Source: an uncultured Candidatus Saccharibacteria bacterium
Lineage (GTDB): Bacteria; Patescibacteriota; Minisyncoccia; JAHIHE01; JAGLIN01
Direction: 5' to 3'
NCBI GenBank assembly: GCA_964412905.1
Contig: CAYPQL010000003.1
Location: forward strand, 1-43,062
Length of the DNA: 43,062 nucleotides
Both the position numbers and the translations under genes were made by a program. The notes beneath the pieces are model-generated. The model searched no databases. It was not told the origin of the DNA and saw only the letters and a list, made by a program, of their open reading frames with translations. Shown here piece by piece: positions 1,611-27,603 of the stretch (positions are counted from its first letter, which is position 1; every line of letters starts with the position of its first letter).

Positions 1611-1638
1611 TTGACACGATTTTTTGTTCTGCTATAAT
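1611..1638 (+). promoter_or_regulatory. Sigma70-type promoter TTGACA-N16-TATAAT with TGn extended -10
   Basis: TTGACA at 1611-1616, TG at 1630-1631, TATAAT at 1633-1638. No gene follows for about 330 nt other than the short leader ORF. Confidence 0.6.
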
Positions 1639-1685
1639 GCTTTTAGTTTGGTGAGTTTAATGTTCAGATATTTTTTTAAATAACC

Positions 1686-1748
1686 ATGAATTACATCCAA
1701 AACAACCGATTTTTCTTCTTTAGCTTTTTTAGCCGTCTCAAGCGATAG
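1686..1748 (+). CDS. Candidate Phe-rich leader peptide (MNYIQNNRFFFFSFFSRLKR) upstream of pheA
   Basis: 20-codon ORF between a consensus promoter and pheA. Six Phe codons fall within seven positions (1710-1730). No SD, but many genes in this window lack one. Confidence 0.5.
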   Translation: MNYIQNNRFFFFSFFSRLKR

Positions 1749-1774
1749 GTTGTTGTTTTAGTGTAATCTTACTT

Positions 1775-1810
1775 AAAAAAAACAATCCATCGCAAAGATG
1801 GTTTTTTTGT
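1775..1810 (+). terminator. Candidate attenuator terminator
   Basis: CCATC (1787-1791), loop GCAAA, GATGG (1797-1801), then T7. An A-run precedes it. GCGATAGG (1742-1749, overlapping the leader stop codon) can pair with CCATCGC as an alternative structure. Confidence 0.45.
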
Positions 1811-1836
1811 TGTCTTAGGCCAAAGCTTTTGATAGC

Positions 1837-1862
1837 GCTATGATAATATGAATTATCATAGC
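1837..1862. repeat. Palindromic element GCTATGATAAT-ATGA-ATTATCATAGC
   Basis: 11-bp perfect stem with a 4-nt loop. Same family as 2866, 12519, 13565 and 23341. Followed about 20 nt later by GGCCTGCGGC. Confidence 0.7.
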
Positions 1863-1963
1863 ATATAAAAAGTTCCGGCCTGCGGCAAAAAAAGTTCGCG
1901 GGGTAAGACTGATGTCTTATTTGAGATAGAAAAGTATATTGAAAACAAAAGGAGGGTATTACG

Positions 1964-2812
1964 ATGAACATTAAAAACATAGGTTTTTTTGGAGATTCTG
2001 GAAGTTTTACAGAACAAGCAGCAAAAAAGCATTTTAGCGATAAAAATATTTTTCTGCCATTTAATAGCGTAAATTCTTTGCTTCAAGCGCTTTTAGATAA
2101 GAAAATTCAAATAGCAGTATTGCCTTTTGAAAATTCTACTGAGGGAGTTGTAACTCCAACAATTGATGCTTTGCTTCGCAAGGAAAATGGTTTTGCTATT
2201 GTAGGCGAAATAGTTTTGCCAGTTGAACATTATTTGATTGGAGTTGGAAAAATAGATGAGATAAAAAAAGTAATATCTCATCCGCAAGCGATTGAGCAAT
2301 GTAATGTTTTTCTGCAAACCATTAATGCAGAACGAGAAAATTTTTCCAGCACAAGCGCTGCGGTAAAAAAAGTAGCAGAAGAGAATAATCCTAAAATTGC
2401 GGCGATTGGTTCTCTAAAAGCTTTTGAGTTTTATAAAAGTCAAAATTCTAATTTAAAAATTTTGGCTAAAAAAATTCAAACCGAGGAAAGTAATAAAACC
2501 AGATTTATTATTTTAGGTTTTGAAAAACCAAAACCAACAAATAAGGATAAAACTTCTCTGTTTTTTACCACAAAAAATAGACCATTGGCGCTGGTTTTGG
2601 CTCTTTTAAGTTTTGGATTATTAGGCATAAATATGACACATATTGAGTCTAGGCCTTCTAAGAAAAAACTTGGAGAATATGTTTTTTTTGCCGAAGTTGA
2701 AGGCAATCAAGGGAGTTTAAAAATGAAATTAGCGCTTAAATTATTAAAAATCAGCGCAACATTGAAAATTCTTGGTTCTTATCCAATTGCTAAACCAAAC
2801 GGGGAGGTGTAA
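1964..2812 (+). CDS. pheA: Prephenate dehydratase with C-terminal ACT domain
   Basis: 282-aa ORF with the signature TRF (NKTRFIILG) and ESRP (THIESRPSKK) motifs. Strong SD AAGGAGGG lies 8 nt upstream of the ATG. Confidence 0.9.
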   Translation: MNIKNIGFFGDSGSFTEQAAKKHFSDKNIFLPFNSVNSLLQALLDKKIQIAVLPFENSTEGVVTPTIDALLRKENGFAIVGEIVLPVEHYLIGVGKIDEIKKVISHPQAIEQCNVFLQTINAERENFSSTSAAVKKVAEENNPKIAAIGSLKAFEFYKSQNSNLKILAKKIQTEESNKTRFIILGFEKPKPTNKDKTSLFFTTKNRPLALVLALLSFGLLGINMTHIESRPSKKKLGEYVFFAEVEGNQGSLKMKLALKLLKISATLKILGSYPIAKPNGEV

Positions 2813-11322: not shown

Positions 11323-11370
11323 AAAACATAGTGTCTTTTAGGACGATCGTCCTGAAAGACACTATGTTTT
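11323..11370. terminator. Long perfect palindrome, bidirectional terminator-like
   Basis: AAAACATAGTGTCTTT.AGGACGA / TCGTCCT.AAAGACACTATGTTTT, flanked by an A-run and a T-run. Confidence 0.6.
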
Positions 11371-11381
11371 ATTTTTTCGGT

Positions 11382-11508
11382 TTGACTATTTTACTCAATA
11401 TGCTATTTTACCAATAGAAAATGAATCACAATTTATTAACCTAAAACCTCTGGGCTTTTTGTTTGGAGTATGGTTTAAAATCCATTCACACAAAAGCGGT
11501 CTTCTGAT
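11382..11508 (+). promoter_or_regulatory. Repeated promoter-plus-leader module, copy 1 (upstream of the AntA-like gene)
   Basis: TTGACT (11382-11387), N16, TGcTATTTT. Then a conserved ~90-nt leader containing the mini-ORF ATGAATCACAATTTATTAACCTAA (11421-11444) and the AACC..CTCT..GGAG..GGTT helix. Confidence 0.6.
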
Positions 11509-11533
11509 GAATAAATTATTTTCGTAAAATCTT

Positions 11534-12499
11534 ATGAATGAAATAATAAATATTAAGGTAGTTCAAAAAACAATAGACAATGAGAAAAAGCGATTTGTGA
11601 ATGCGCGAGAATTGCATAAGTGGCTAAAGGCAGGTAAGTTTTTTGCTAACTGGATAAAAGACAGAATAGAGAAGTATGATTTTACAGAGGGTACAGATTT
11701 TTTTAAAGTGATACCATATAAAGAGTTGAAGCAAGCTAAAGATTTTGATCTCGCAATTTTAGGAAATCGAAATGAAGAGCTGAAACAAGCCAAAAGTTTT
11801 GATTTGCCAAATCTGGCAAATCAAAAGTCAAAACGAGGCGGAGATGTAAGAAGCATAGATTATATTTTAACAATTGATATGGCAAAAGAGATAGCGATGC
11901 TTGAAAATAATGAATTAGGCAAGAAGGTGAGAAAATATTTTATCAGAACGGAGGAGCGATTCAAAGAGGTTATGCGCGTGGCTTTAAATAATCCAAAATT
12001 TGTTAATCAGCTTTCTGAAGATTTTAAGGAAACAAGAGAAGAGACAAAGGATTACAGAAAAGATTTTACGGACAGCATAAAAAAATGCGTCTCGGCTAAA
12101 TTTTATGGAACTTACACGGATATGCTGTATAAGTTTTTATTTGTAGAAAGGGCGAAGGAATATAGGAAATTATTAAATTTAGCCAAAAAAGATTTAACCA
12201 GAAATACAATGTATGAGGAGATATTGTTTATCATTGGTAGTTTTGAAACGGGCTTAGCTGGGGAGTTGGAGAAAAAATATAAGAAAAAAGAAAAGCGTTT
12301 AAATCAGCAAGAATTTATAAAAACTTTTGAACAATTTTCTTCAACGCAAAACTGGGATGCTTATAAAAAGAGGGTTAGAAAAATAATGGCGACTTATGAC
12401 GAGGAATTAAGAAATATCAAGCATCCGAAGTTGATTGATTATAGAAAAGAGTTCACAAGCGAGGATATTAAAAAACTGCTGGGGCATAGTGGCGTTTGA
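11534..12499 (+). CDS. AntA/AntB-type antirepressor-like protein (phage-derived N-terminal domain)
   Basis: 321 aa. The N-terminal ARELHKWLKAGKFFANWIKDRIEKYDFTEGTDF matches the AntA domain pattern. A tandem internal KQAK.FDL repeat follows. Confidence 0.6.
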   Translation: MNEIINIKVVQKTIDNEKKRFVNARELHKWLKAGKFFANWIKDRIEKYDFTEGTDFFKVIPYKELKQAKDFDLAILGNRNEELKQAKSFDLPNLANQKSKRGGDVRSIDYILTIDMAKEIAMLENNELGKKVRKYFIRTEERFKEVMRVALNNPKFVNQLSEDFKETREETKDYRKDFTDSIKKCVSAKFYGTYTDMLYKFLFVERAKEYRKLLNLAKKDLTRNTMYEEILFIIGSFETGLAGELEKKYKKKEKRLNQQEFIKTFEQFSSTQNWDAYKKRVRKIMATYDEELRNIKHPKLIDYRKEFTSEDIKKLLGHSGV

Positions 12500-12518: not shown

Positions 12519-12554
12519 AAAACACTATGGTAATATGAATTATCATAGTGTTTT
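12519..12554. terminator. Palindromic terminator AAAACACTATGGTAAT-ATGA-ATTATCATAGTGTTTT
   Basis: 12-bp stem (one G-T pair) flanked by A4 and T4. Member of the CTATGATAAT palindrome family. Confidence 0.65.
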
Positions 12555-12566
12555 ATTGCTTGCTCG

Positions 12567-12690
12567 TTGACTTTTTTACTCAATATGCTATTCTACCGAT
12601 AGAAAATGAATCACAATCTATTAACCTAACCTCCGGGCTTTTTGTTTGGAGTATGGTTGAAATTCTAGAGTATAGAAGCGGTCTTCTGAT
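12567..12690 (+). promoter_or_regulatory. Repeated promoter-plus-leader module, copy 2 (upstream of the KilA-N gene)
   Basis: TTGACT (12567-12572), N16, TGcTATTCT (12589-12594). The leader is near-identical to copy 1, including the mini-ORF, which carries a synonymous TTA-to-CTA change. Confidence 0.6.
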
Positions 12691-12708
12691 AAAATTCAAA
12701 ATAAAAAT

Positions 12709-13539
12709 ATGGCGAATCAAAAAATTATTGTTCAAAATACTGAAATTGTTTTGTTTTCGGAGGGAAAGGATGATTTTATATCTTTAACTGATATTGCTAA
12801 ATATAAAAATTCGGAGTTTCCGGCGGACGTGATAAAAAATTGGATGAGAAATCGCGGGACTATAGAATATCTGGGATTGTGGGAGAGGATTAATAATCCG
12901 AATTTTAAACTGGTCGAATTCGACGAGTTTAGAAATGAGGCAGGGAGCAATTCGTTTGTGCTTTCTCCTAAAAAATGGATTAACCATGTTAATGCCGCGG
13001 GGTTGATAAATAAAGCGGGGAGATATGGCGGCGGGACTTTCGCGCATAAGGACATTGCTTTTGAATTTGCTTCATGGATTTCAGCGGAGTTCAAGCTGTA
13101 TCTTATAAAAGAATTTCAGAGGCTTAAAAGCGATGAAAATGTTCGCTTAAAGCTGGATTGGAGCGCGAAAAGATTTTTAGCCAAGGCAAACTATCGCGTG
13201 CATACGGACGCCGTGAAGGAGAAATTAATTCCGGCGCAAATTTCAAAAAAGCAAATCAAGATGATTTACGCGGACGAAGCCGATGTCCTGAATGTGGCGC
13301 TTTTTAGCCAAACCGCGAAAGAATGGAGGGACAAGAATTCCGGCAAAAAAGGCAATATGCGGGATTACGCGGATATTATCCAGCTGGTATGCCTTGCCGG
13401 GCTGGAAAGTCTTAATGCGGAGTTTATCAGGCAGGGAATTGATCAAGGCGAAAGATTAAAAAAGCTAAATAAGATTGCGATTATTCAGATGAGGGCGCTA
13501 ACTATGGATAAAAACGGAAGGAAGATTTTGACTAAATAA
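12709..13539 (+). CDS. KilA-N domain-containing protein
   Basis: 276 aa. Matches the KilA-N pattern: ISLTDIAKYK, NWMRNRGTIEYLGLWE..NNPNFK, GRYGGGTFAHKDIAFEFASWISAEFKLYLIKEFQRLK. Confidence 0.8.
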   Translation: MANQKIIVQNTEIVLFSEGKDDFISLTDIAKYKNSEFPADVIKNWMRNRGTIEYLGLWERINNPNFKLVEFDEFRNEAGSNSFVLSPKKWINHVNAAGLINKAGRYGGGTFAHKDIAFEFASWISAEFKLYLIKEFQRLKSDENVRLKLDWSAKRFLAKANYRVHTDAVKEKLIPAQISKKQIKMIYADEADVLNVALFSQTAKEWRDKNSGKKGNMRDYADIIQLVCLAGLESLNAEFIRQGIDQGERLKKLNKIAIIQMRALTMDKNGRKILTK

Positions 13540-13564: not shown

Positions 13565-13603
13565 AAAACACTATGGTAATATGAATTATCATAGTGTTTT
13601 TTT
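13565..13603. terminator. Palindromic terminator (same sequence as 12519)
   Basis: AAAACACTATGGTAATATGAATTATCATAGTG followed by T7. Confidence 0.65.
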
Positions 13604-13613
13604 GTTTTTTGGT

Positions 13614-13716
13614 TTGACTTTTTTATTTGGCGTGCTATTCTACCAACAGAAAATGAATCACAATTTAGAAACCTAACCTTCGGGCTTTTTTGTTTGGAGT
13701 ATGGTTGAAATCCTAG
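13614..13716 (+). promoter_or_regulatory. Repeated promoter-plus-leader module, copy 3 (no ORF of its own downstream)
   Basis: TTGACT (13614-13619), N16, TGcTATTCT (13636-13641), then the conserved leader (mini-ORF MNHNLET). It is followed immediately by a separate promoter. Confidence 0.55.
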
Positions 13717-13731
13717 AACACATTTATTTAT

Positions 13732-13759
13732 TTGACACAATTTTTTTAACTGCTACAAT
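13732..13759 (+). promoter_or_regulatory. Promoter TTGACA-N16-TGcTACAAT for the riboswitch transcript
   Basis: TTGACA at 13732-13737, TG at 13751-13752, TACAAT at 13754-13759. Confidence 0.6.
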
Positions 13760-13778
13760 GCGATCAGACAATTAAATA

Positions 13779-13946
13779 AGTTTATCCAGAGTACGGCGAG
13801 GGAACTAGCCCCAAGACCCGTCAGCAACCCTTGAATGGTGATTCCATCAAGAAGGTGCTAATTCTAGCCCTAAAAAGGAAAGATACAGGTCGTTTTTTGT
13901 TTTTCTGGAACAAAAATATCTTTCTCTTCTCGGGAAAGATTTTTTA
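13779..13946 (+). promoter_or_regulatory. SAM-I (S-box) riboswitch with terminator expression platform
   Basis: The aptamer core matches the S-box consensus blocks: TTATCCAGAG, GGCGAGGGAACTAGCCC, AGACCCGTCAGCAACC, GGTGCTAATTCTAGC, GGAAAGATAC. The terminator is ATCTTTC (13918-13924) / GAAAGAT (13934-13940) plus a T-run. The same ATCTTTC can instead pair with GAAAGAT (13878-13884) of the aptamer 3' strand, acting as an antiterminator. Confidence 0.85.
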
Positions 13947-23340: not shown

Positions 23341-23376
23341 AAAACGCTATGATAATTCATATTATCATAGCGTTTT
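23341..23376. terminator. Palindromic terminator AAAACGCTATGATAAT-TCAT-ATTATCATAGCGTTTT
   Basis: 12-bp perfect stem flanked by A4 and T4. The loop is the reverse complement of the 12519/13565 loops. Confidence 0.7.
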
Positions 23377-27463: not shown

Positions 27464-27603
27464 TACTTTGAAATAAAGAATTCAATTTAATGTTTATGCT
27501 AAGCCATTTTATAAACCTCCAGTATGATATTAGGTAATATCATACTGTTTGGAATTAAGACAGTATCGTAAATATTATTTTATAATATTGTATTTCTAAA
27601 CAC

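Follow-up and report, generated by a model that had tools for sequence, protein, structure and literature searches.

Leaders rich in phenylalanine (Phe) or other aromatic codons precede several kinds of bacterial genes. In Escherichia coli, a Phe-rich leader lies before the genes for phenylalanyl-tRNA synthetase (pheM-pheST), an attenuator that puts genes tied to the supply of charged tRNA-Phe under Phe-codon control, and outside the Proteobacteria Phe or aromatic leaders are found in Lactococcus (the leu/phe leader motif, RF01743) and in Corynebacterium glutamicum (aroR, before aroF). Patescibacteria, also called the Candidate Phyla Radiation (CPR), are usually described as lacking amino-acid biosynthesis, and to our knowledge almost nothing has been reported on regulation in this group. 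Here we analysed the region upstream of pheA (positions 1611-1963) in an uncultured Candidatus Saccharibacteria bacterium; the window referred to throughout is the whole 43,062-nucleotide (nt) stretch examined, positions 1 to 43,062 of the forward strand of contig CAYPQL010000003.1 (assembly GCA_964412905.1). On the strength of sequence comparison and RNA modelling, we propose that this leader controls pheA by ribosome-mediated transcription attenuation, with a leader peptide whose translation reports the supply of charged tRNA-Phe, a reading to which we assign a probability of roughly 0.85. Our literature search found nothing on leader-peptide attenuation in Patescibacteria.

The closest described system is the pheL-pheA leader of E. 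coli and other gamma-proteobacteria (Rfam Phe_leader, RF01859); 53 pheL genes have been described in the gamma subdivision of the proteobacteria (PMC3082878). As in that system, the locus studied here has a short open reading frame (ORF) close to the promoter, with a run of Phe codons that is interrupted; an intrinsic terminator lies ahead of pheA, and an antiterminator draws on the 5' arm of that terminator, so that the two structures exclude each other. The position of the ribosome would likewise select the structure, and the regulated activity, prephenate dehydratase, is the same. Unlike pheL-pheA, the host belongs to the Patescibacteria, the pheA gene is monofunctional and encodes no chorismate mutase domain, the antiterminator arm contains the leader stop codon, the terminator stem comprises just 5 bp, no Shine-Dalgarno sequence precedes the leader ORF, a structured spacer of 150 nt follows, and the candidate 1:2 segment 5' of the Phe codons is weakly supported. 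The Phe_leader model scored 16.7 bits (E 3.7) at window positions 1694-1811 and 27-34 bits in relatives; these scores fall below the gathering cut-off of 55 bits and thus place the leader outside that family, to which it has no detectable homology in sequence or structure. Like pheM-pheST, the leader of this CPR order puts Phe codons ahead of genes other than pheA, namely aminotransferase, aroDE and tRNA-Phe-like loci; unlike pheM-pheST, no copy of it was found before pheS or pheT in the host genome, and there is no sequence relationship between the two. Together with RF01743 and aroR, it would be a further case of Phe/aromatic leader-peptide attenuation by unrelated sequences in several phyla, and it differs from both in taxon, peptide and structure. 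We therefore regard the leader as a new, order-wide sequence family of a known, classical mechanism.

A preliminary description of the locus, made from the sequence alone, had proposed a promoter (TTGACA-N16-TGcTATAAT), a 20-codon ORF with six Phe in seven codons, and a short terminator (CCATC-GCAAA-GATGG plus T7), and we found each of these elements exactly as described (Table 1). The promoter matches the consensus at 12 of 12 positions, with the TG extension, and is the sole 12/12 match within the first 6 kb; its TTGACA ... TGCTAT.. layout occupies the same alignment columns in the leaders of four related genomes (G002, G016, G005 and G031). Transcription is predicted to start near position 1645. 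The Phe density of the leader ORF is rare in this organism: among ORFs that begin with ATG and span 10-40 codons, only three on both strands of the 1.28-Mb genome contain at least six Phe in seven codons. The other two, at C70 and C71, were rejected as attenuators, as they have no promoter or terminator nearby and resemble out-of-frame reads of larger coding regions.

The RNA of this leader can adopt two competing structures. The naked leader (1645-1815) folded at -36.2 kcal/mol (z-score -3.2 versus shuffles), and the resulting fold was a long antiterminator, not the terminator. The pairing first proposed was between the segment GCGATAGG (1742-1749) and CCATCGC, the 5' terminator arm; the segment includes the TAG stop codon, and its GCGAT is complementary to ATCGC at 1789-1793. 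We found that the antiterminator extends beyond this pairing, adding the helices GGUUGUU:AACAAUC and AGCCGUCU:AGAUGGUU to GCGAU:AUCGC, and that both terminator arms are consumed by it; its energy is -17 to -26 kcal/mol, compared with -6.2 kcal/mol for the terminator stem. The leader stop codon sits inside the antiterminator 5' arm. We folded the RNA with approximately 30 nt masked for a ribosome. With the mask on the Phe codons, the antiterminator remained; with the UAG in the A site, the terminator alone remained. These in silico results agree with the proposal that a ribosome on the Phe codons frees the antiterminator and that one at the stop codon masks it. When the terminator was enforced, the fold recruited an additional pairing between AACAACC (1701-1707) and GGUUGUU.

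The same leader ORF was sought upstream of pheA orthologues in relatives. Full-length orthologues (31-53% identity) were identified in seven related genomes, and five of the seven (G002, G005, G016, G026 and G031, from three families) carry an upstream Phe-run ORF in frame with a conserved ATG. The corresponding peptides are MNYTKNSQFFFFSFFSRHMR, MNYTKNNFFFFSFFSRFQR, MNYNKNNWFFFSFFSRFQR, MVYSQNNRFFFFFFTPPIGRLSLRIN and MTIRRNNRNFFFFFNASKRELFLSAK. Among these leaders the promoter, the ATG, the Phe run, the segment GCGAUAGG, and the hairpin with its T-run all align. The terminator stems vary (CCAUC/GAUGG, AUAACCC/GGGCUAU, GGCCU/AGGGC and CAGCUCUCC/GGAGCUG), and the upstream arm changes to match. 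The loci differ throughout, and thus are not assembly duplicates of one sequence. A covariance model (R1) built from four leaders was run on the 32 genomes of this Patescibacteria order and matched a leader at E <= 0.01 in 25 of them, with two or three copies in some; the host genome has a single match. A second model, built from 30 copies and run on 301 genomes sampled across the class, found the motif confined to the order plus one genome of another family (leader MAIAIKTNQFFFYFFFTRDPRIGFGFFKR). All of the leader peptides have the form ..NN.FFFF(S)FFS.. or contain mixed Phe/Tyr codons (for example, MNHNTSNKFYFFYFFSHHLR), and the Phe or Phe/Tyr run is kept in 27 of the 30 aligned copies.

Within the 30-copy alignment, the 13 bp of the antiterminator were paired in 90.8% of cells, and 11 of the 13 pairs exhibited changes on both sides. 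This level of pairing was reached by none of 500 shuffles, and slid controls gave 31-46%. The pairing between the stop-overlapping segment and the 5' terminator arm, GCGAU:AUCGC, covaries across relatives, with versions such as GAGAU:AUCUC, UUGGU:ACCAA and UUGGCAGG:CCUGUCAA. In 22 of the 30 copies, the first letter of the stop codon is at +4 of the antiterminator 5' arm; in most copies, the end of the last aromatic codon lies 12 nt 5' of that arm. Since the terminator stems lie in different registers between genomes, we assessed them by folding each sequence in place of column-wise covariation; a hairpin followed by a T-run was present at the terminator position in all 30 copies (-4.8 to -13 kcal/mol), with differing stem sequences. 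The preliminary description had cautioned that the stem might be too weak to terminate. The stem is indeed weak, yet CCAUCGCAAAGAUGG with its U-run is identical in approximately 11 genomes, and others reach -13 kcal/mol at the same place. Finally, the pyrimidine run contains 37 internal C residues, of which 35 occupy codon position 3 in the frame set by the conserved ATG, and ORF insertions and deletions within the family are multiples of 3 nt. These two features suggest that the run is read as codons. Together, the conservation, the covariation of the antiterminator, the codon phase and the constrained folds strongly support the attenuator reading first put forward for this locus. The 1:2 helix is more weakly supported: 85.8% of its cells pair across the 30 copies, but double changes occur at only two of seven pairs, and the duplex energies, in a composition that is A-rich against U-rich, are only modestly better than those of shuffles.

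From these features we infer that the leader ORF is translated, that the terminator functions and that the switch responds to Phe, as follows. RNA polymerase would initiate at the promoter, and a ribosome would then translate the 20-codon leader. With ample Phe-tRNA(Phe), the ribosome would reach the UAG codon and cover GCGAUAGGUUGUU, the antiterminator 5' arm; the 5' terminator arm CCAUC would then be free to pair with GAUGG, and polymerase would terminate in the U7 tract, near position 1808. When Phe-tRNA(Phe) is scarce, the ribosome would stall within the run of six Phe codons, a minimum of 12 nt 5' of the antiterminator arm. Pairing of the free arm with AACAAUCC-AUCGC, continuing into AGAUGGUU, would prevent the terminator from forming, and transcription would proceed through the structured spacer into pheA. 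By analogy with trp, a possible third pairing, AACAACC:GGUUGUU, would bring back termination when the RNA is not translated.

Table 1. Features of the pheA leader, its surroundings and related loci. Positions are those of the window unless a locus is named.
Feature	Position	Strand	Details
Sigma-70-type promoter	1611-1638	+	TTGACA 1611-1616, 16-nt spacer, extended -10 TGcTATAAT 1630-1638
pheL-like leader ORF	1686-1748	+	20 codons, MNYIQNNRFFFFSFFSRLKR, UAG stop 1746-1748
Possible segment 1, AACAACC	1701-1707	+	Putative alternative partner of GGUUGUU 1748-1754 (anti-antiterminator)
Regulatory codon run	1710-1730	+	Phe x4 1710-1721, Ser, Phe x2 1725-1730 (direct reading)
Antiterminator 5' arm (segment 2)	1731-1759	+	AGCCGUCU 1731-1738, GCGAU 1742-1746, GGUUGUU 1748-1754; minimum-energy folds and covariation
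Antiterminator 3' arm (segment 3 and part of 4)	1775-1803	+	AACAAUC 1781-1787, AUCGC 1789-1793, AGAUGGUU 1796-1803; overlaps terminator stem
Intrinsic terminator	1787-1808	+	CCAUC 1787-1791, GCAAA loop, GAUGG 1797-1801, U7 1802-1808 (terminator scan)
Long imperfect hairpin	1816-1886	+	26-nt perfect palindrome GCTATGATAATATGAATTATCATAGC 1837-1862 at centre; fold of 1645-1963
Two small hairpins just 5' of the pheA ribosome-binding site	1879-1919	+	CCUGCG...CGCGGG and UAAGAC-UGAU-GUCUUA; fold
pheA	1950-2812	+	Shine-Dalgarno AGGAGGG 1950-1956; ORF 1964-2812, 282 aa; PF00800
Palindrome copies	1839-1860, 2869-2890, 12526-12547, 13572-13593, 23348-23369, 27523-27544
Module copies bracketing pheA	1837-1886 and 2866-2921
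Module copies bracketing pheA, locus L002	1382-1435 and 2440-2492
tRNA-Phe-like element, locus L135	1756-1831	+
tRNA-Phe-like element, locus L118	1216-1290	-
tRNA-Phe-like element, locus L120	1331-1407	-
tRNA-Phe-like element, locus L113	1314-1387	-

Several observations weigh against the attenuator reading. The alignment used for covariation was fitted to the model structure, and its sequences are related to one another. The 5-bp terminator is far weaker than the antiterminator, and the naked RNA prefers read-through, as enforcing the terminator costs approximately 8.6 kcal/mol relative to the unconstrained fold. Termination would then depend entirely on either a ribosome that has reached the stop codon or the weakly supported 1:2 pairing. 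The absence of a Shine-Dalgarno sequence at the leader ORF also counts here, though it is unremarkable in this genome, since motifs of this kind precede only approximately 7% of long ORFs genome-wide. Downstream, the terminator and pheA are some 150 nt apart, and the structured RNA spacer between them contains a repeated palindrome and a weak promoter-like site (1829-1856, 9/12); pheA could thus have attenuator-independent transcription. Finally, the physiological logic is incomplete, because the genome is without a pathway that supplies prephenate.

Some of these features would also suit a free-standing small gene, encoding either a 20-residue hydrophobic micro-protein or a small RNA of approximately 165 nt, with pheA transcription beginning separately, 3' of position 1815. 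Such a unit would be equipped with a perfect promoter and a terminator of its own, and the promoter-like site in the spacer could serve the downstream start. In addition, trans-acting roles are known for an attenuator RNA and its peptide, rnTrpL and peTrpL of Sinorhizobium (PMC7298713, PMC7968998), which provide a precedent. The peptide is conserved outside the Phe run, at its N-terminus (MNY.KNN) and tail (SR..R), but these conserved non-Phe codons coincide with the RNA pairing segments AACAACC, AGCCG and GCGAUAG. Similarly, in some relatives the long ORF that follows a copy is small or has no annotation, but every copy is oriented towards a downstream gene on its own strand, mostly one of the aromatic pathway. 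An antiterminator that covaries with the terminator would be purposeless in such a gene, and we consider this explanation improbable.

It is also conceivable that the switch is real and operates by something other than the sensing of translation speed, either through nascent-peptide arrest at FFFFSFF, unaided or together with a ligand, in the manner of TnaC or SecM, or through binding of a protein or tRNA, as in TRAP or T-box systems. The conserved peptide sequence around the Phe run fits the first of these possibilities, but the number of aromatic codons varies from three to eight, with single codons gained or lost, which is uncharacteristic of a fixed arrest peptide. What varies among copies is whether the run encodes Phe, Phe/Tyr or Cys-Cys, and this follows the type of gene downstream, the pattern that sensing by codons would predict. 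With respect to the second possibility, neither a T-box nor RF01743 matched positions 1550-2000 at E up to 10 or seven related loci at E up to 1, and no other Rfam riboregulator matched the 1550-2000 interval at E up to 10. Additional RNA or protein inputs are hinted at by a tRNA-Phe-like element and a 22-bp hairpin in the leaders of relatives, but the window's own leader is without the tRNA-like element. From these data, we judge that a switch of this kind has little chance of being the correct explanation.

The tRNA-Phe(GAA)-like element lies 3' of the Phe attenuator, on the same strand and shortly before the ribosome-binding site of the next gene, in four relatives (Table 1); these four were the only tRNA matches in approximately 92 kb of flanks. 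The element is atypical: its 8-bp acceptor stem starts with U-A, its A-rich D-loop has no G18G19, and the CCA end is not encoded. By eye, degenerate versions can be recognized in L117, L121 and L122, and genome G026 additionally has a canonical tRNA-Phe elsewhere. Neither ARAGORN nor Rfam detected such an element in the window's own leader, and a BLAST search of the host genome with the relatives' elements returned no match. The conserved hairpin, G·U-rich and 22 bp long, is located approximately 20-60 nt past the attenuator terminator in relatives such as L113, L115, L116, L121 and L122. Its sequence, GGAAUUUAYCCUUUAGGGUUUCAA...UUGAAAUUUUAGAGGGUGGAUUY, is followed by an A-rich stretch and then by the tRNA-like element; it exhibits compensatory changes at six pairs in nine genomes and has no Rfam match. 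In most other relatives, the hairpin and tRNA-like element occupy the place of the palindromic structures found in the host, which hints at a second layer of control or processing.

The weakest explanation, that a T-rich spacer happens to read as Phe codons and that the hairpin and T7 form a constitutive or bidirectional terminator unrelated to pheA regulation, could draw on the short stem, the 37% G+C content of a genome in which T-runs are common, and the frequency of terminator-like and promoter-like sites in our scan, but it is scarcely credible given that the ATG, frame, stop position and alternative pairing are conserved across 25 genomes, that the pyrimidine run has a codon-phase bias, and that the only two comparable ORFs in the 1.28-Mb genome fall within coding regions.

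We next consider which genes the attenuator family precedes. In relatives, the genes behind the leader include pheA, an AroD-AroE fusion, class I/II aminotransferases, a PDT-like protein, an ATP-grasp protein and several proteins without a Pfam match. As the same leader heads other aromatic-pathway genes, we conclude that it defines a small regulon and is not a one-off. One copy, at L140 1516-1569 (G008:C35), retains the antiterminator/terminator scaffold but has two adjacent Cys codons in its leader, MKHEKQAICCRTKYPSF, and precedes a PALP (CysK-like) gene. This arrangement fits a codon-programmable sensor, and the copy may derive from the Phe leader and sense Cys. The mechanism is a textbook one, and the value of the family lies in its distribution and its regulon and not in a new principle: an order-wide set of Phe/Tyr-codon attenuators, with one Cys derivative, would provide a concrete and testable regulatory RNA in the CPR. 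It would mark the remnant steps that are still under amino-acid-starvation control, among them pheA, the aminotransferases, aroDE and several proteins of unknown function, and the uncharacterised genes behind the leader would gain a first functional clue.

A search with a five-sequence pheA alignment returned mostly pheA genes from outside the CPR, which were without Phe leaders. At two Chloroflexota pheA loci (L078 and L109, Chloroflexia / Anaerolineales), a short ORF with the pattern MK(N/S)..(F/R)FFFYAYFYG..AAVASR is conserved approximately 580-615 nt upstream of pheA, and it possibly encodes a Phe/Tyr leader peptide in another phylum.

The product of pheA in the window is a prephenate dehydratase (Pfam PF00800, E 4.9e-53, residues 6-187) with a C-terminal regulatory region that contains ESRPS. 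A strong AGGAGG precedes this gene and all its orthologues in relatives, which is unusual for a genome in which so few ORFs carry such a motif. The preliminary description had stated that pheA stands alone, with no other aromatic-pathway genes nearby. This holds for the host genome (1.28 Mb in 89 contigs), in which we detected no AroD-AroE, chorismate synthase (PF01264) or CM_2 chorismate mutase (PF01817) and only a weakly similar aminotransferase; it does not hold for relatives, where the leader heads further genes of the pathway. Within the order, chorismate synthase was found in G006 only. As shikimate-pathway genes were undetected in the genome, pheA appears to be an orphan pathway step. 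ARAGORN identified only 30 tRNA genes in the 89-contig assembly, with no tRNA-Phe among them and other tRNAs missing too, which probably reflects incompleteness of the assembly.

The genome, of epibiont type, is thus without aroDE, chorismate synthase and CM_2, yet it keeps a prephenate/arogenate dehydratase that would be induced by Phe starvation. For this reason, we tentatively suggest that the attenuator represents retained control of a salvage step, and that the hairpin and tRNA-like element of relatives form a second layer that is replaced here by a palindrome module bracketing pheA. We regard this interpretation as possible but doubtful. If it were true, the organism would make regulated use of aromatic intermediates from its host or community, and the second layer in relatives could involve cleavage by RNase P/III or a mimic that binds phenylalanyl-tRNA synthetase (PheRS).

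The spacer between the terminator and pheA is itself highly structured, as the fold of 1645-1963 had a z-score of -6.3. Both small hairpins that precede the pheA ribosome-binding site are kept in G031 with compensatory changes (UAAGAU-UUAU-AUCUUA). The palindrome at the centre of the long hairpin belongs to a family, TATGATAAT-N4-ATTATCATA, of which we found six copies in the window, compared with 0.09 expected, and approximately 20 in the genome. In many of these the stem reaches 16 bp, with an A-run on one side and a T-run on the other, much like a bidirectional terminator of conserved sequence; the copy in the pheA leader has no T-run on either strand. Against positions 1550-2000 at E up to 10, the only Rfam matches besides the sub-threshold Phe_leader were spurious miRNA-type matches to the palindrome. 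A module comprising the palindrome plus GCCTGCGGC is present both upstream and downstream of pheA, here and in G031, a member of another family whose pheA is the closest to that of the host (51-53% identity). The gene is bracketed by two direct copies of this module, each consisting of the palindrome, approximately 20 nt, and (C/T)CGCCTGCGGC. This bracketing may reflect a transferred cassette or elements for RNA processing or stability.

Elsewhere in the window, we noted three modules composed of a promoter and a mini-ORF (MNHNL.T), at 11370-11560, 12555-12745 and 13600-13790. We rejected these as kin of the Phe leader: they have in common with it only the TTGAC-N17-TGCTAT promoter type and the ATGAAT(C/T)ACA start, and diverge afterwards. 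At gathering thresholds, Rfam matches in the whole window consisted of two tRNAs and a SAM-I riboswitch (RF00162, 58.6 bits) at 13779-13889.

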